The notes beneath the pieces were generated by a model that saw only the letters and a program-made list of their open reading frames with translations, had not been told where the DNA came from and made no database searches. A DNA stretch of 14,361 bases. Source: a virus. Its lineage: Duplodnaviria; Heunggongvirae; Uroviricota; Caudoviricetes. The stretch is taken from positions 1 to 14,361 of the IMG/VR virus record IMGVR_UViG_2531839662_000017, one strand, 5' to 3'. Positions within the stretch are counted from its first letter, which is position 1. Each line of letters begins with the position of its first letter. Positions 4,383 to 14,361 of the stretch are shown here, piece by piece. A program made the position numbers and the translations under genes.

Positions 4383-4502
4383 TTACTCCTCAGGTTCGTA
4401 AGCTGTGAAGACAGCGACCTCCGTCTGGCCGGTTCGGATTCGTACCTCGCAGAGGTCTTTCCTCGTTATCAGTACCGCAACAATTTCGTATTCATGATTC
4501 AT
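4383..4502 (-). pseudogene. hok-family toxin remnant, 5'-truncated (HokD/RelF-like C-terminus)
   Basis: Minus-strand translation ...IVAVLITRKDLCEVRIRTGQTEVAVFTAYEPEE* matches the conserved Hok C-terminal half. Only 39 codons are in frame from an ATG (MNHEYE...), an in-frame TGA lies just upstream, and the hydrophobic N-terminal helix is missing. Homology ends where the AT-rich DNA begins (about 4480). A perfect 9-bp hairpin at 4354-4375 lies in the 3' UTR. Confidence 0.55.
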
Positions 4503-4659: not shown

Positions 4660-5706
4660 TTACCATATGGAGTTGTGAATGAACTTTAATTCATTTTTTA
4701 TTTTGTTAACAGATAAATTCACGGATGTCCTAACTCTATTCACAGTCATTGCATCTCCTGGATTTAACAACTCTAATGGTTTAGACTTAGCACTTGACAT
4801 TCTGCCACTACCCAGAAAATCATCAAGAATCACAATGTGATTATTAGGATCATCTGTTGTAAAATTACTAATATTTTGTCGAATTACCTCTCTTACAGCT
4901 TCGATGTACATTTTTGTCTGTTGATTTGGTTTATTCCTTGCTCCTGCCACTGTTGACCATCCGCAATGGGTAATAACCACCATCTGAATTTTTGGTGTAT
5001 GGCCATCAGACGGCATTATCTTTCTAAATTCTGATGTTGGTTTAGTCAGAGTATCAATAAGTAATCTTAATGAATTAATCGATTGCTGATCTGTCCTCAC
5101 TGGAACTATTAAAGCATCTGTTGCATGCCAAGATAAATGCGTCGCTCCAGAGAAAAAAGGTGATGTATCAATTAACGCTTTTGTAGTACCAGTTTCAACC
5201 ATTTCTCTGGCTATTTCTTTCTTCAGAGAAAAAAGAATTGTATCAATAACAACCTGCTGAGTAGCCCCAGAAATTGTTCTGGCTTGAGCCAGAGCATTCG
5301 CCATTTGCGTAGGTAGAAGATAAAGTTGACTATCAGATTGAATAAAATAGTTATTCTTGCCCGCAAACCAAGCATTAGTTGATGATACTAGCTTTGCAGC
5401 ACGCGTTGCAAATCCAAGCCCTGGAACAAAATAAGGCATTAAGAGGTCATTTGCAGTTGTGCTAGACGAAGATGCATAATTATTGTCAAAAAAATATGAT
5501 AAATTTCCTTGCGGGCACGTATCCACGATTAATGCGTTATCCGCCAAATATGACAGATTAAAAGTTAAAGATGTCTTACCAATGCCTCCCCGTAAATTAC
5601 ATACTGTATATTTATCATATTTCGGCAAATTAAGACTTCTTACATTACCGTCAGCAACTTCGAATTGACGCTCTATCAGAGCATTAACATTTGATTCACT
5701 AGTCAT
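4660..5706 (-). CDS. ParA/MinD/BcsQ-like P-loop ATPase (deviant Walker A), AT-rich accessory gene
   Basis: 348 aa with VCNLRGGIGKTSLTFNLSY (Walker A of KGGxGK[ST] type, with R replacing the signature K as in BcsQ) followed by IVDTCPQGNL (ParA-type D-x-PQ-N). The gene and its flanks are markedly AT-rich compared with neighbouring phage genes. Confidence 0.7.
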   Translation of the reverse strand: MTSESNVNALIERQFEVADGNVRSLNLPKYDKYTVCNLRGGIGKTSLTFNLSYLADNALIVDTCPQGNLSYFFDNNYASSSSTTANDLLMPYFVPGLGFATRAAKLVSSTNAWFAGKNNYFIQSDSQLYLLPTQMANALAQARTISGATQQVVIDTILFSLKKEIAREMVETGTTKALIDTSPFFSGATHLSWHATDALIVPVRTDQQSINSLRLLIDTLTKPTSEFRKIMPSDGHTPKIQMVVITHCGWSTVAGARNKPNQQTKMYIEAVREVIRQNISNFTTDDPNNHIVILDDFLGSGRMSSAKSKPLELLNPGDAMTVNRVRTSVNLSVNKIKNELKFIHNSIW

Positions 5707-9181: not shown

Positions 9182-9607
9182 TTAGTGCATCACCACGGCA
9201 TTTCCCGCCGGACCACCACGATTCATCTGATTGAAACCAGCGATCGCCACTGCGACAAAATCATCAGCGTCTCTCACCAGTCGTTCCCGCATCTCCACCA
9301 GCTCCCGAAAATAGGCTGAACTGTGGCTGCGCATTCGGGCCACCAGCAGAGGTGGCATTGCCTTTTCGATCGCCGGTAACAGCGCCTGAATTTTTTTAAC
9401 CGCATCAGGGGTGTCTTTCTCCACCCAGCGGAAAATTTTCTGAGTATTGCGAGCCAGGGCTTCCGGATGCCTGTCGTCATATAGCTCTGGGAACGTCATA
9501 CCAAGCTCAAAATAAGCCCGGGTTATTTCAGCTGCTGGAACTTTTTCGCCATCAGGACGCGCCCAGGCATTCATCGCCATGCGGATGTGTTCATGCTTGA
9601 TTTTCAT
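9182..9607 (-). CDS. ydaT: YdaT-like protein (CII-position regulator)
   Basis: 141 aa beginning MKIKHEHI. Overlaps the upstream Cro-like gene by ATGA (9604-9607) and sits between cro-like and O-like genes, the lambda cII position. The name is from recalled Rac/CP-933P annotation. Confidence 0.55.
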   Translation of the reverse strand: MKIKHEHIRMAMNAWARPDGEKVPAAEITRAYFELGMTFPELYDDRHPEALARNTQKIFRWVEKDTPDAVKKIQALLPAIEKAMPPLLVARMRSHSSAYFRELVEMRERLVRDADDFVAVAIAGFNQMNRGGPAGNAVVMH

Positions 9608-10003: not shown

Positions 10004-10375
10004 ATGCAAAAAAAAGAAATTCGCCGTTTACGTCTCAAGGAGTGGTTTAAAGATAAAACTCTGCCACCCAAAGAGAAGAGCTACCTATCTCAACTAATGA
10101 GTGGGAGGGCCTCGTTTGGAGAAAAGGCTGCCAGAAGAATAGAGCAAACATACGGGATGCCGGAAGGGTATCTGGATGCGGAATACGCAGAACAACCGGA
10201 AGTTTCTCCACCACATGCAGGGTTAACGTCTAATCAACTGGAATTATTGCAGATTTTTTCAGCCTTCCCTGAGGATGAGCAACGCCAGATAATCAGCGAG
10301 TTAAAGCAGAAAAAAGAATCAATGGAAGATCTCATAGCGAGATGGATTGCGGCGCAAAAATGCCGCCGCGCCTGA
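10004..10375 (+). CDS. paaR: CI-like prophage repressor (PaaR-like HTH regulator), no S24 peptidase domain
   Basis: ATG at 10004 preferred over the GTG at 9941, which would read through the operator repeats. 123 aa with HTH KEKSYLSQLMSGRASFGEKAARRIEQ. First gene of a three-gene operon with the ParE-family toxin-antitoxin pair. Confidence 0.65.
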   Translation: MQKKEIRRLRLKEWFKDKTLPPKEKSYLSQLMSGRASFGEKAARRIEQTYGMPEGYLDAEYAEQPEVSPPHAGLTSNQLELLQIFSAFPEDEQRQIISELKQKKESMEDLIARWIAAQKCRRA

Positions 10376-10395
10376 GTTATAAAACCGGAGGAAAC

Positions 10396-10587
10396 ATGAA
10401 TAGAGCCCTTTCACCAATGGTTTCTGAATTTGAAACCATTGAACAAGAAAACAGTTACAACGAATGGCTGCGTGCGAAAGTAGCAACGAGCCTTGCAGAT
10501 CCGCGCCCAGCAATTCCCCATGACGAAGTTGAGCGCAGAATGGCAGAACGCTTTGCTAAAATGCGCAAGGAACGGAGCAAGCAGTAA
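10396..10587 (+). CDS. paaA: Small antitoxin partnered with ParE toxin (PaaA-like)
   Basis: 63 aa (MNRALSPMVSEFETIEQ...) with a GGAGG Shine-Dalgarno. Stop at 10585-10587 lies 1 nt before the toxin ATG. I recall this as the PaaA antitoxin of the paaR-paaA-parE systems in O157:H7 prophages. Confidence 0.65.
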   Translation: MNRALSPMVSEFETIEQENSYNEWLRAKVATSLADPRPAIPHDEVERRMAERFAKMRKERSKQ

Positions 10588-10588
10588 A

Positions 10589-10867
10589 ATGTTACCCGTG
10601 TTATGGCTTGAAAGCGCAGATACCGACCTAGATGATATAACTAGCTATATTGCTCGTTTCGACATAGATGCGGCTGAACGCTTATGGCAGCGATTAAGGG
10701 GTTGTGTGCTGCCGTTATCCGAACATCCGTATTTATACCCACCAAGCGACAGAGTACCTGGCTTGCGTGAGATTGTAGCCCACCCTAACTATATAATTCT
10801 ATACCGCGTAACAACATCAAGCGTTGAAGTAGTAAACGTGATCCACGCAAGACGCCAGTTTCCCTAA
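10589..10867 (+). CDS. parE: ParE/RelE-family toxin
   Basis: 92 aa with a ParE-like C-terminus (HPNYIILYRV...VEVVNVIHARRQFP), translationally coupled to the antitoxin. Confidence 0.8.
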   Translation: MLPVLWLESADTDLDDITSYIARFDIDAAERLWQRLRGCVLPLSEHPYLYPPSDRVPGLREIVAHPNYIILYRVTTSSVEVVNVIHARRQFP

Positions 10868-10970: not shown

Positions 10971-11077
10971 TATTAAACTAAAAATACCAACCCACCCCGC
11001 CCCACAGAATGCAGGGCAATACTTCGAGTTACCAGGCAGTGGTCAGGGGTTAAGTAGCCAGCCCGAGGCGTAAGAAC

Positions 11078-12943
11078 ATGACGGCAGGGTTCAACTTTAA
11101 TAACTATGCAGCAGGTTTTTGTTCCGCTACCCCGGCGTTAAGGGGAAATGAGGTCAGCATGGATACTATCGATCTTGGCAACAACGAATCTCTGGTATGC
11201 GGCGTGTTCCCCAACCAGGACGGTACGTTCACCGCGATGACATATACCAAAAGCAAAACGTTTAAAACCGAATCTGGCGCGCGTTGCTGGTTAGCCAGAA
11301 ACAATGAAGTTATCGACAAAGATCGCGAAGACTGGAAGCGCATTTCCGCATCAATGCGCAAACAACCCGATGCCGTCCGCTACGACCGTCAGACTATTTT
11401 TGGCCTTGTCCGTGAGCGTCCGATCGACATTCACAAAGATCCCGTAGCACTGAACAAATACATCACTGAATACCTGGCGACAAAGGGCGTGTTTGAGGAT
11501 GAAGAAACAGACCAGAACGCTGCTGATATTCTCCAGCCGTCAGCAGCACAAACTGATGCAGTGGAAACTGAAGTATCTGATACCCAAAAAAATGAAAGCA
11601 CGCTGGAAACTGAACCATCTGTAGAGCGTGAGGGGCCGTTCTACTTCCTTTTCACCGATAAGGATGGCGAAAAATATGGTCGTGCAAACAAACTTTCTGG
11701 TCTGAATAAGGCGCTGGCTGCAGGGGCTACTGAAATCACGAAAGAAGAATATTTTGCCCGCAAAAACGGTACATACTCAGGCTCACAACAAAATACTGGT
11801 GCATCTGACACGACCGCACAACCAGAGCCGGTAAAAGTTACCGCTGACGAAGTAAACAAAATTATGCAGGCAGCCAATATCAGCCAGCCTGACGCTAATG
11901 AACTGCTTGCTGCCTCTCGCGGAGAATTTGTTGCAGGGATTAGCGACCCGAATGATCCGAAATGGGTGAAGGGGATTGAAACCCGCGATTCTGTGAACCA
12001 GAACCAGCAAGAAACGGAACAGAACGACCAGAAAGCGGAACAAAACAGCCCAAATGCGTTACAAAACGAGCCGGAAACAAAACAACCTGAGCCAGTAGCG
12101 CAACAGGAAGCGGAAAAAGTCTGCACCGCCTGCGGTCAGAGCGGTGGCGGCAACTGCCCTGATTGTGGCGCGGTGATGGGCGACGCAACATACCAGGAAA
12201 CATTCGATGAAGAGAATCAGGTTGAAGTTCAGGAAAACGATCCGGAGAAAATGGAAGGCGCTGAACATCCACACAAGGAGAATGCTGGCAGCGCTCAGGA
12301 CCACGCCAGCGATAATGAAACTGGCGAGGCGGCAGATCACTCAATTAAGATGAACGGTCATCACGAAATCACATCCACCAGCAGGACGTGTGACCATCTA
12401 ATGATCGACCTCGAAACCATGGGAAAAAATCCTGATGCCCCGGTTATCTCAATAGGTGCAATATTTTTCGATCCGCAAACCGGAGATATGGGACCGGAAT
12501 TTAGTAAGACTATCGATCTGGAAACTGCTGGCGGAGTCATTGATCGGAACACCATTAAATGGTGGCTGAAGCAATCACGCGAAGCGCAATCTGCCATTAT
12601 GACCGATGAAATCCCGTTAGATGATGCACTGTTACAATTGCGAGAATTTATCGACGAAAACTCCGGTGAATTTTTTGTTCAGGTCTGGGGAAATGGAGCC
12701 AACTTCGACAACACGATTTTGCGCCGTTCATACGAACGGCAGGGGATCCCCTGCCCGTGGCGTTACTACAACGATCGCGATGTACGCACAATCGTTGAGC
12801 TGGGGAAAGCCATAGACTTCGATGCCAGAACGGCTATTCCATTCGAAGGTGAGCGCCATAATGCACTTGATGACGCTCGTTACCAGGCAAAATACGTTTC
12901 AGCTATCTGGCAAAAACTGATCCCGAGTCAGGCTGATTTTTAA
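11078..12943 (+). CDS. Multidomain protein with C-terminal DnaQ-like (DEDDh) 3'-5' exonuclease domain
   Basis: 621 aa. C-terminal third carries Exo motifs MIDLETMG (D-x-E), [11 protein letters not shown] and HNALDDARY. Preceded by a Cys4 zinc-ribbon ([16 protein letters not shown]) and an acidic Q/E-rich low-complexity linker. The start could instead be Met28 at 11159. Confidence 0.75.
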
Positions 12944-13004
12944 TGTTCAACCGTCGCCAGTTGTCGTTGGTATTCTGCAACTGGCGCGTTCCGGAGTGAT
13001 AGCC

Positions 13005-13274
13005 ATGAGCGAACAGTACCTGATAACGCTCGATGAGTGGAAGCCAAAACGGTTCAGTCTCCCAATAACAAACACTACCCTGGTGAAATACGGAAAACTA
13101 GGATACATCGTTCCAAGACCACAAAAAATTCGTGGGCGTTGGCTGATAGATCGCCGAGCAGTATTTGTTGGACCTGGTGAAACAGGAATTGCGCCGGAAA
13201 TTCATACTGGCGATGATGATGCACTGAAGGAGATTTTAACTCATGTCACCGAGGCCACGAAAAAACAGCACTGA
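13005..13274 (+). CDS. xis: Excisionase (Xis-like)
   Basis: ATG at 13005 with GGAG 8 nt upstream (ORF track starts at a GTG at 12996). 89 aa, small and basic. Overlaps the integrase start by 32 nt, as lambda xis/int do. Confidence 0.6.
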   Translation: MSEQYLITLDEWKPKRFSLPITNTTLVKYGKLGYIVPRPQKIRGRWLIDRRAVFVGPGETGIAPEIHTGDDDALKEILTHVTEATKKQH

Positions 13275-14361
13275 CGTAGCCGGACTTTACGAAAAATTTG
13301 ATCGCAGAACTGGCAGAGTTTACTACCAGTATAAAAACCCTGTGACTGGAAAATTTCACGGGCTCGGAACAGACAAAGGTAAGGCAGAAAAAATCGCTTC
13401 CACAGCCAATCAGCGAATAGCTGCAGCAGAGGCTGAATATTTCATGCGCAAAATTGATGAAAGTCCGTCAGCAACAACGCGTCGGGGTATCAGATTAAAG
13501 GCATGGGTTGATCGATATCTGAAAATACAGGACACGCGACTGAAAAATGGAGATATTGCAGCTACAACTCACAAAGAAAAAGCCAGAATGGCTGCATACC
13601 TGGTTTCCCGTCTGGGAAACCACCCATTGAAAGAACTGGAAGTAAGAGACTTTGCATTAATACTGGATGAGTGGCTGGATAAAGACATGGTCAGCACAGC
13701 GAGAGTAAATCGTGGATTATGGGTTGATATTTATAAAGAAGCACAGCATGCAGGGGAAGTTCCTCCTGGATGGAATCCTCCGGAGGCCACCCGTAAACCG
13801 ATCCCTAAAGTAACCAGAGCCAGACTCACCCTGGAAGACTGGCAAAAAATTTACAACGCAACGCCAGAAAAACACTTTATCCGTAACGCAATGCTTCTTG
13901 CGATTGTTACTGGTCAGCGCCGTGATGACATTTACCACATGCGTTTTTCAGATGTGTGGAACGAACATTTGCATATCACCCAGGGAAAAACCGGAATGCG
14001 TCTGGCGTTACCGCTTACACTACGCTGTGATGCCATTGGGATAACGTTAAAAGAAGTTATTGATGGGTGCCGAGACAGAATATTAAGTCCATATCTAATC
14101 CATAGTCGGCACCAGAAACAACCGAAGCCGATGAGTAAAGACAACCTGAGCGACTACTTTGCCAAAGCACGGGATCTGGCTGGGATAATTCCACCAGCAG
14201 GAAAAACTCCGCCAACATTTCATGAACAACGCTCTCTATCAGAACGGCTGTACCGTGCACAGGGTATCGATACAAAAACATTACTAGGACATAAAGTCCA
14301 GGCAACCACCGATCGCTATAACGATACTCGAGGTCAGGAATGGGTTAAGTTGGTTATTTGA
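13243..14361 (+). CDS. int: Tyrosine site-specific recombinase (phage integrase)
   Basis: 372 aa with an arm-binding type N-terminus and a C-terminal catalytic region (...LLGHKVQATTDRYNDTRG..., candidate Tyr nucleophile in DRY). Stop codon is the last three bases of the window, so the attachment site probably lies just beyond. Confidence 0.9.
   Translation: MSPRPRKNSTDVAGLYEKFDRRTGRVYYQYKNPVTGKFHGLGTDKGKAEKIASTANQRIAAAEAEYFMRKIDESPSATTRRGIRLKAWVDRYLKIQDTRLKNGDIAATTHKEKARMAAYLVSRLGNHPLKELEVRDFALILDEWLDKDMVSTARVNRGLWVDIYKEAQHAGEVPPGWNPPEATRKPIPKVTRARLTLEDWQKIYNATPEKHFIRNAMLLAIVTGQRRDDIYHMRFSDVWNEHLHITQGKTGMRLALPLTLRCDAIGITLKEVIDGCRDRILSPYLIHSRHQKQPKPMSKDNLSDYFAKARDLAGIIPPAGKTPPTFHEQRSLSERLYRAQGIDTKTLLGHKVQATTDRYNDTRGQEWVKLVI

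Follow-up and report, generated by a model that had tools for sequence, protein, structure and literature searches.

A 621-codon open reading frame upstream of xis-int in a cryptic lambdoid prophage of Escherichia coli UMNF18 is probably a deletion chimera of a DUF1391 gene and a YdfE-family exonuclease gene

What occupies the slot between the immunity region and the excision–integration genes of a lambdoid prophage when no canonical recombination module is found there? In the window analysed here, a 14,361-nucleotide stretch of prophage DNA that is 100% identical to the genome of E. coli UMNF18, this slot holds one long open reading frame (ORF), followed directly by the excisionase and integrase genes (Table 1). 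A preliminary description, made from the sequence alone, took it to be a single gene for a composite protein of 621 residues. The ORF is indeed open over 621 codons on the + strand and all of the motifs listed for it are present, but it consists of two joined gene fragments. With a probability of about 85%, we read it as a deletion chimera produced by prophage decay, whose larger parent would be a mosaic with a RecE-like scaffold and with DNA 3'-end processing as its most likely role.

Table 1. Positions of the ORF, its component fragments and domains, and the neighbouring genes (coordinates of the window; the slash marks the join).
Feature	Position	Strand	Basis or remark
Chimeric ORF, 621 codons counted from the first ATG	11078..12943	+	Uninterrupted from ATG to stop
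5' fragment of DUF1391 (ydfA-like) gene, first of the early-left operon	11159..11301	+	Pfam, relatives, PGAP
Deletion junction (…GCCAGAAAC/AATGAAGTT…)	11299..11302		Alignment to relatives
YdfE-family exonuclease gene, 3' fragment (codons 278–823)	11303..12943	+	Identity to P0059, PGAP, PHROG 2082
Remainder of second helical domain (parent aa about 245–340)	11303..11491	+	AF2
Small beta-hairpin/helix module (EGPFYFLF…YFARKNG)	11630..11770	+	AF2, invariant in homologues
Central module in common with RecE of Rac-type prophages, including acidic linkers	11891..12331	+	BLASTP
Cys4 motif (CxxC-x7-CxxC), putative zinc ribbon	12122..12166	+	Invariant in homologues
DEDDh (DnaQ-like) 3'-5' exonuclease domain, Rv2179c/DexA family	12395..12910	+	Pfam, catalytic residues
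Excisionase gene	12996..13274	+	PGAP start 13005
Lambda-type tyrosine integrase gene	13243..14361	+	potC next in genome, prophage end

The preliminary description saw one large gene whose N-terminal domain it did not recognise, and this was not confirmed. Residues 29–75 match DUF1391 (PF07151) over positions 1–47 of the 48-position profile (E = 1.4e-26; 92.3 bits against a gathering score of 27.3), and from residue 76 onwards the ORF belongs to a separate gene of 823 codons. The DUF1391 fragment matches TRITO_32 of phage Tritos and the DUF1391 gene of a near-isogenic prophage locus, L012. Compared with the YdfA/DUF1391 small proteins that prophages of the Qin and Rac types encode, the UMNF18 fragment has lost the stop codon and the last few codons and reads through into the exonuclease fragment; its gene comes first behind the immunity region, a position it also has in relatives. 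The ATG at 11159 (Met28) is more likely to be the native start than that at 11078, because it is preceded by GAGG, the DUF1391 profile begins there and it is used both by PGAP and by the gene calls of relatives. Counted from this start the ORF has 594 codons.

The remainder of the ORF could be assigned residue by residue. Residues 76–621 are identical (546/546) to residues 278–823 of an intact 823-residue allele, P0059, which lies at the same xis-int–potC site. Because residues 278–823 are identical but nothing corresponds to residues 1–277, the UMNF18 ORF is a truncated member of this family, that is, a pseudogene. Its match to PHROG 2082 covers profile positions 277–823 only. RefSeq/PGAP annotation of UMNF18 splits this stretch into two pseudogene fragments, the first described as ‘DUF1391 family protein, incomplete, missing C-terminus’ and the second as ‘3'-5' exoribonuclease domain-containing protein, incomplete, missing N-terminus’.

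In comparisons with Tritos, 2014C-3050 and L012, sequence left of the junction matched the DUF1391 gene and sequence right of it matched the exonuclease gene from codon 277/278, with microhomology of at most about 3 bp at the join. Missing from the window are 2,249 bp of L012 (4579–6827), comprising two small ORFs, the DicF region, dicB, ydfD and codons 1–277 of the exonuclease gene. Identity to L012, which occupies the same potC site, is 99.8% over the right arm and xis-int. Since there are no amino-acid differences from the intact allele downstream of the junction, the deletion appears to be very recent. The dicB and ydfD genes are present in 76 of the 80 related loci and deleted in the window, in which xis-int is retained. 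Rfam detected no DicF at the gathering threshold in either the window or L012; at a relaxed threshold L012 gave a sub-threshold match (34.1 versus 48 bits) that falls within the deleted segment, while canonical DicF was found in two other loci (L004 and L003) and is absent from the window.

We propose that UMNF18 carries, at potC, a cryptic lambdoid prophage of the Qin/DicB type in which one illegitimate deletion of about 2.25 kb would have brought codon 278 of the YdfE-family exonuclease gene into frame behind the 5' end of the DUF1391 (ydfA-like) gene. Selection probably favoured the deletion because the toxic dicB/ydfD/DicF cassette was lost with it. The chimera could be expressed and active, because the fusion is in frame and undamaged; if the early-left promoter transcribes it, the product would have an intact DEDDh domain and be without the N-terminal targeting domains of its parent. 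Counts from a scan for promoters and terminators were not above those in shuffled controls.

AF2 predicted parent residues 1–344 with a pLDDT of 85.2, and the same helices at only about 55 in the truncated context; native folding of the helical remainder is unlikely, because the deletion took the first 30 or so residues of the second helical domain. The middle of the window protein (aa 75–439) has a mean pLDDT of 45.6, too low to support a fold search; from the junction up to the nuclease domain, only the beta-hairpin/helix module is predicted with confidence to fold (segment residues 111–155, pLDDT about 80). The acidic Q/E-rich linker of the preliminary description was confirmed as linkers with D+E+Q+N fractions of 0.39–0.57, and its Cys4 motif, at aa 349–363, is invariant in 16 homologues and conserved in RecE; the region matches Pfam DZR weakly (E = 0.13), consistent with a putative zinc ribbon.

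The C-terminal domain had been identified as a DnaQ-like 3'-5' exonuclease with a fold unlike the PD-(D/E)XK fold of RecE and lambda Exo, and both points are upheld, the activity itself being predicted. Residues 440–611 match PF16473 (Rv2179c-like) with E = 3.7e-67 and 225.9 bits against a cut-off of 27, and neither the window protein nor the parent matches PF12684 or PDDEXK. The exonuclease motifs are DLETMG (aa 444–449), FDNTIL (543–548) and HNALDDARY (594–602). T4 DexA (PDB 8KEL), a 3'-5' DNA exonuclease (PMC12153337), was the only solved homologue found by sequence (phmmer, E = 1.5e-6), and the catalytic residues D444, E446, D544, H594 and D599 align with its D7, E9, D119, H186 and D191. 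These five residues are invariant in 65–66 of 66 family sequences, T2 DexA among them. On the basis of the catalytic residues and the homology to T4 DexA, the domain should trim 3' ends by the two-metal mechanism that DnaQ-like enzymes use.

The intact parent is a very common prophage exonuclease gene that has already been catalogued. Its product combines YdfE_N (PF27430), YdfE_C (PF27432) and Rv2179c-like (PF16473) domains within PHROG 2082, and the family comprises no fewer than 7,999 clusters at the 90% identity level, with members in thousands of E. coli prophages; among viral contigs, at least 599 stretches matched the search pattern and encoded a relative. Named members are TRITO_27 of phage Tritos, CDS0033 of HannyBb and ECO26_1771, and the gene is intact in the isolated phages Tritos and HannyBb. 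Chi occurs 5 and 2 times in the 45 kb of HannyBb (raw counts). Family members carry YdfE_N domains at parent aa 1 to about 205, which are missing from the chimera together with all of codons 1–277; the chimera has 47–74 DUF1391 residues in place of this N-terminal part, and shares the chromosomal site and xis-int. Our literature searches turned up no work on the function of the YdfE-family gene.

How does the parent relate to the recombination functions normally encoded at this position? RecE (exonuclease VIII) of Rac-type prophages is encoded at the same operon position, upstream of xis-int, and has a central module that is 75% identical to that of the YdfE-family protein over about 148 residues (parent 474–621 versus RecE 471–611; BLASTP, E = 2e-66), with weak similarity further upstream. 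The module includes the Cys4 motif, and its DNA is 84% identical to recE of Rac-SA53. The NCBIfam RecE equivalog PRK09709 matches partially, in the central region only, at 258.7 bits against a cut-off of 1,269 bits. The preliminary description had set against itself the case in which the N-terminal region matched a well-characterised recombination protein and the whole was the standard exonuclease of its phage group. This is largely what was found: the middle of the protein is the part that matches RecE, and the parent is the standard exonuclease of the Qin/DicB-type prophage group. RecE has a PF06630 N-terminal domain, a PD-(D/E)XK nuclease and an adjacent RecT, none of which is present in the UMNF18 chimera, and it degrades DNA 5'-3', whereas the YdfE-family nuclease is predicted to act 3'-5'.

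Hybrid proteins connect the two families. One (P0123) joins the RecE N-terminal domain to a DEDDh nuclease; another (P0141) joins YdfE_N/C to a PD-(D/E)XK nuclease and is followed by RecT. The PD-(D/E)XK domain was found in this hybrid and in RecE of Rac-SA53. Such hybrids show that the RecE and YdfE families exchange N-terminal and nuclease cassettes. In a census with probes for RecT and one Rad52-type annealase only, neither annealase was found at any of 79 loci with the DEDDh form, while RecT was found at 65 of 69 loci with the RecE form, at a median offset of −6 bp; the loci are not independent, because most are 89–97% identical. Seven loci retrieved with the RecE query matched neither nuclease probe under the 40% coverage rule. 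The contrast in RecT association (0/79 versus 65/69), together with the occurrence of all four combinations of N-terminal domain and nuclease, provides a clean starting point for a functional experiment.

RecT, Rad52-type annealase, SSB and Abc2 were undetectable in the window, Tritos and HannyBb, and RecT was also absent from the genome neighbourhood of the ORF. The view that the gene stands in place of a canonical recombination module is well founded as to position, since the slot is the recE-recT site of Rac-type prophages and no annealase was detected. We suggest that the parent is a mosaic on a RecE-like scaffold, in which PD-(D/E)XK nuclease and RecT would have been swapped for a DEDDh nuclease without an annealase. 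Its role is most likely 3'-end processing of DNA in the early programme of the phage, and we infer that it is not a two-component recombinase of the RecET type. A point against a DNA-end role is that the predicted 3'-5' polarity is the opposite of that required for annealase-dependent recombination; 3'-5' exonucleases usually inhibit recombination (PMC12315714). The parent may be of modest interest more widely, because most E. coli genomes have this gene in the slot of recE, on the central scaffold of RecE, with a nuclease of predicted opposite polarity and no annealase.

DnaQ-type nucleases have been described in or near lambdoid Rec modules, as the ‘Exo’ of epsilon34 and mEp235, while sporadic DnaQ-type nucleases near int are not counted as Rec-module genes (PMC12315714); the UMNF18 gene fits the latter class. 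The 182-residue mEp235 Exo is 60% identical to the UMNF18 domain and its gene likewise lies in the early-left operon, a short way upstream of xis-int. It is, however, a stand-alone protein within a Rad52-SSB-Exo-Abc2 recombination module, encoded between SSB and Abc2 and beside a Rad52-type annealase, whereas UMNF18 has no annealase, SSB or Abc2.

The absence of an annealase partner and the prophage-borne position near int, outside a recognisable Rec module (a non-Rec position as classified in PMC12315714), would also suit a nuclease active against phages or in superinfection exclusion. The parent, and possibly the chimera, could then resemble EcD (HREX), which belongs to the same Pfam/DexA family, degrades 5hmC-modified T4 DNA and made E. 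coli resistant to T4 when supplied on a plasmid (PMC12153337). The UMNF18 domain falls in the DEDDh subfamily of DexA and EcD and has all five catalytic residues, at only about 26–29% identity; DexA and EcD are stand-alone proteins of about 200–227 residues, whereas in UMNF18 the domain forms the C-terminus of a large protein. EcD was not found among 63 stand-alone representatives when sought by its primer-derived termini (start MIDTET, end TIPETYD), so this different, short protein is not among the closest stand-alone representatives. DexA W152 and D169, proposed to recognise 5hmC, are replaced by Tyr564 and Ala578, the alignment near D169 being loop-rich and uncertain. PADLOC returned only a generic Cas-associated DEDDh match (E = 3e-5). 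Furthermore, gene order suggests that the gene is the last of a repressor-controlled early-left operon and would not be expressed in the lysogen, whereas prophage defence genes normally are, and the gene is kept in free-living temperate phages. We therefore consider a defence role unlikely; nothing found here supports the earlier suggestion of anti-defence, host takeover or superinfection exclusion, given the generic PADLOC match, the unconserved 5hmC residues and the probable early-left position.

An activity on RNA is improbable too; the domain would then be a 3'-5' exoribonuclease of the kind of Mycobacterium tuberculosis Rv2179c, possibly one that trims or turns over dicBF early-left transcripts or host RNAs. 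An RNA substrate is possible for the parent because both Pfam and PGAP name the domain as an exoribonuclease, and intact relatives would co-transcribe the gene with the processed DicF sRNA locus. Against this, the phage relative closest to it among those characterised, DexA, is an exonuclease of DNA (PMC12153337), the nearest homologues of stand-alone form lie in DNA recombination modules, and the scaffold is common to the DNA exonuclease RecE, with nuclease cassettes interchanged upon it. We give equally little credence to a variant in which the chimera is expressed upon prophage derepression as a DEDDh exonuclease without targeting domains, and the parent is a RecT-independent nuclease of unrecognised role whose cassette is interchangeable with that of RecE. 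If this were true, the parent might serve in exclusion of incoming-phage DNA, or in 3'-end trimming that steers the phage to RecBCD/Chi-dependent recombination.

Could the ORF instead be a genuine, selected protein with a new DUF1391–linker–zinc ribbon–DEDDh architecture and its own function? All 621 codons are open, the catalytic domain is intact and the family is highly modular, so that new domain combinations do arise. Nevertheless, the junction was found in only one of 5,426 complete E. coli genomes, that of UMNF18, and the identity of its downstream part to the intact allele makes it very recent. The breakpoint splits the second helical domain of the parent, for which AF2 gave a pLDDT above 90, PGAP calls two pseudogenes, and a random join would be in frame one time in three. 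Among the best 150 representatives, ten of them checked for domain content, no fusion of DUF1391 with the exonuclease was noticed. Such a protein is very improbable, and the mapping of the junction, with the PGAP pseudogene pieces, identifies the supposed composite architecture as a strain-specific deletion chimera rather than an evolved protein. The case cautions that even where an ORF is long and clean and its motifs are recognisable, it may be a recent deletion chimera; here public annotation already flags the pieces as pseudogene fragments.

Least credible of all is that the deletion is an assembly artefact and the real locus intact: the junction is unique to one assembly, a 2011-era shotgun record of a genome with several paralogous lambdoid prophage copies (5–9 matching places in the record), but a mis-join at a point without homology is unlikely, no repeat common to both sides of the join could have misled the assembler, both flanks are collinear with the prophage at potC, and a comparable natural truncation, a second and independent one, occurs at the same locus in the finished genome of DEC5E. 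The deletion chimera is accompanied in UMNF18 by other signs of prophage decay, namely a frameshifted ydaT and a partial hok, and a 34-kb island interrupts the prophage after Q.

The uninterrupted 621-codon frame at window 11078-12943 (+) is shown to be a recent, strain-specific, in-frame deletion chimera, in which a fragment of a DUF1391 gene runs on into the 3' two-thirds of an exonuclease gene of the YdfE family. The preliminary description had taken it for a composite protein; in public annotation of the Escherichia coli UMNF18 chromosome, to which the window is 100% identical, it is already flagged as two pseudogene pieces, and mapping of the junction and identity with the parent, a catalogued and very common prophage gene, lead to the same reading. 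The DUF1391 gene of phage Tritos aligns to window 10990-11302, and the Tritos exonuclease gene, from codon ~277, to 11299-12987. The join was positioned by alignment to undeleted relatives, the best reference being L012, a prophage locus at the same xis-int-potC-potD site: L012 6828-9890 matches window 11299-14361 at 99.8%, and the 2,249 bp preceding it are absent from the window. Residues 278-823 of an intact 823-residue allele (P0059) are identical to residues 76-621 of the frame at 546 of 546 positions. Because homology between the two sides at the join is at most ~3 bp, the deletion is attributed to illegitimate recombination. Of 5,426 complete E. coli genomes, UMNF18 alone fully covered a 121-bp probe spanning the junction.

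All the motifs previously claimed were found in the frame, including the acidic, Q/E-rich linkers. The N-terminal region described as unrecognized can be named in part, by an unexpected Pfam match to DUF1391. In PHROGs, phrog_2082 ('exonuclease', 823 positions) aligns to residues 75-621 from profile position 277 only, and residues 1-76 match separate small-protein families; alignment with the nearest phage genomes does not begin until nucleotide 222 of the frame. Natively, translation of the fused frame probably starts at ATG 11159 (Met28), giving 594 residues, since a GAGG 7-11 nt upstream, the start of the DUF1391 profile and the gene calls of relatives agree.

Coordinates of features in the window, the chimeric frame (ORF), its intact parent and related loci
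Feature	Position	Strand	Source and remarks
DUF1391 family protein, incomplete, missing C-terminus	window 11159-11305		RefSeq/PGAP on UMNF18, pseudogene piece
3'-5' exoribonuclease domain-containing protein, incomplete, missing N-terminus	window 11303-12943		RefSeq/PGAP on UMNF18, pseudogene piece
DUF1391 domain	ORF aa 29-75		Pfam, E 1.4e-26
Cys4 motif	ORF aa 349-363
Rv2179c-like DEDDh exonuclease domain	ORF aa 440-611		Pfam, E 3.7e-67
DLETMG	ORF aa 444-449
FDNTIL	ORF aa 543-548
HNALDDARY	ORF aa 594-602
Alpha/beta domain	parent ~aa 1-100		AF2
Helical domain	parent ~aa 105-205		AF2
Disordered linker	parent aa 205-236		AF2
Second helical domain	parent ~aa 245-340		AF2
Missing segment	L012 4579-6827		two small ORFs, DicF region, dicB, ydfD (DUF1482), exonuclease codons 1-277
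Chi octamers (GCTGGTGG or complement)	window 1418, 1470	+	six in 14.4 kb
	window 9295, 9340, 12375, 14191	-
Partial Hok/Gef gene	window 4384-4485	-	PGAP; sign of decay
Frameshifted YdaT-family gene	window 9183-9607	-	PGAP; sign of decay
PaaA2-type antitoxin	window 10396-10587	+	PGAP CDS; PF21217, E 1.7e-19
ParE toxin	window 10589-10867	+	PGAP CDS; PF05016, E 4.8e-16
~34-kb island-like gene block	UMNF18 NZ_AGTD01000001.1 1,313,009-1,346,935 (L011 510-34436)		outside window

The remaining interest lies in the uncharacterized parent family and its exchange of RecE and DEDDh cassettes rather than in the frame itself. Clustered at 90% identity, the intact ~823-residue parent yields at least 7,999 clusters, nearly all from E. 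coli, named 'exonuclease' or '3'-5' exoribonuclease' at source, with precomputed Pfam domains YdfE_N (PF27430), YdfE_C (PF27432) and Rv2179c-like. The gene is intact in phages Tritos and HannyBb, the latter from bird droppings; the IS-truncated Qin ydfE of K-12 we take to be an N-terminal remnant of it. No study of ydfE function turned up in full-text literature searches. AF2 modelling of parent residues 1-344 from a diverse alignment of 18 sequences gave a mean pLDDT of 85.2. The breakpoint, at codon 277/278, falls within the second helical domain, so the chimera holds only part of that domain. Residues 75-439 of the frame are mostly predicted to be disordered (mean pLDDT 45.6), the sole confident unit being a small beta-hairpin/helix module at ~185-229. 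Judging by homology, the chimera product, if made, would be a metal-dependent 3'-5' exonuclease with a broken helical domain and without the parent's N-terminal domains.

RecE of the Rac-type prophage Rac-SA53 (1,048 residues) has a central module, Cys4 motif included, in common with parent residues 474-621 (75% identity, E 2e-66), and a weak 26% match further upstream, whereas the N-termini and nuclease domains are unrelated. An exhaustive representative search (11,778 matches) shows the family to be modular: P0123 joins a RecE N-domain (PF06630) to the DEDDh domain and is followed directly by xis-int, P0141 joins YdfE_N/YdfE_C to a RecE-type PD-(D/E)XK domain and is followed by recT (PF03837, E 2e-36), and many DEDDh proteins of 180-200 residues stand alone. 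A census of 160 viral-contig loci, close relatives and hence non-independent, was probed with RecT and one Rad52-type annealase and tabulated for loci whose downstream sequence extended for 1.2 kb or more. Either annealase accompanied the PD-(D/E)XK RecE form at 65 of 69 loci (median recT start offset -6 bp) and the YdfE_N plus DEDDh form at 0 of 79 (±6 kb searched). The latter form had dicB upstream in 76 of 80 loci and a window-type integrase in 47, starting a median of 300 bp past the gene. Seven set-B loci carried the RecE N-domain, with neither nuclease probe passing a 40% coverage rule; at ten RecE-query loci (L162, L164-L172) query residues 1-1024 matched across just ~2.6 kb. Both groups may be shorter RecE variants or nuclease-less 'RecE-2' proteins (PMC12315714).

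The DEDDh domain occurs in 1,639 phage records (tblastn) and retains five of five catalytic residues. Its nearest stand-alone relative, mEp235 Exo (182 residues, 60% identical), is encoded a short way upstream of xis-int, between SSB and Abc2 and adjoining an annealase of the Rad52 family. DnaQ-like 3'-5' nucleases are one nuclease type of lambdoid Rec modules, such nucleases usually inhibit recombination, and 'sporadic' DnaQ-type genes near int were excluded from Rec-module genes (PMC12315714); the gene studied here fits this sporadic class. Genomic context suggests that the intact parent would not be a RecET-type recombinase, and points to a putative role in which its RecE-like scaffold would serve DNA 3'-end processing during the phage's early programme, with DNA or RNA as candidate substrate. 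The Chi count of the window may be relevant to the lambdoid phage class with 'no Rec module, many Chi'; one of the six octamers lies inside the exonuclease gene, and HannyBb has 5 and 2 per 45 kb.

A possible role in anti-defence, host takeover or superinfection exclusion, as previously proposed, found no positive support. The only solved relatives of the domain by sequence (8KEL/8KEN, a 227-residue exodeoxyribonuclease, E 1.5e-6) are T4 DexA, whose stand-alone E. coli homologue EcD is reported to digest T4 DNA carrying 5hmC and to confer protection against T4 on cells (PMC12153337). EcD, from its cloning primers, starts MIDTET and ends TIPETYD, and therefore differs from the protein studied here; it was not found among the 63 closest stand-alone representatives. 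DexA W152 and D169, proposed to recognize 5hmC, align with Tyr564 and Ala578, the second alignment being uncertain, and PADLOC returned only a generic Cas-associated DEDDh match. The gene appears to be the last in a repressor-controlled early-left operon, which would not be the usual site of lysogen-expressed defence genes. None of this evidence ties it to an EcD-type mechanism.

The deletion may have been tolerated or favoured through loss of the toxic dicB/ydfD/DicF cassette. A benefit of this kind is consistent with a different, independent truncation of the exonuclease gene in the potC-site prophage of E. coli DEC5E (L003 3749-4826, approximately window 11148-11500), where canonical DicF survives and dicB and ydfD are gone, together with a larger share of the gene's 5' end; the integrase there is also frameshifted. 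DicF is canonical in Tritos, DEC5E and a further locus, L004 (the latter two 99% identical to annotated Tritos DicF), whereas the near-isogenic, undeleted L012 gave only sub-threshold Rfam matches to DicF (5293-5343, 34.1 vs 48 bits) and STnc100 (5341-5564, 34 vs 47 bits); DicF is therefore apparently variable among these prophages.

The prophage is otherwise decaying too, although the ydaT frameshift call may hinge on the reference, since our own ORF list has an intact 141-codon frame at 9182-9607. The PaaA2/ParE toxin-antitoxin pair (window 10342-10867, +) lies in the early-left region, flanked by the immunity-side gene and the beginning of the DUF1391 gene. In the UMNF18 prophage the ~34-kb island follows Q and tRNA-Ile, ahead of the lysis genes; on its far side are prophage tRNA-Lys/Thr/Gly, holin and endolysin genes. 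It carries a CbtA/YeeU toxin-antitoxin pair, an antirestriction protein, a Cah autotransporter, a methyltransferase-helicase-GIY-YIG nuclease trio, several IS elements and a tyrosine integrase.
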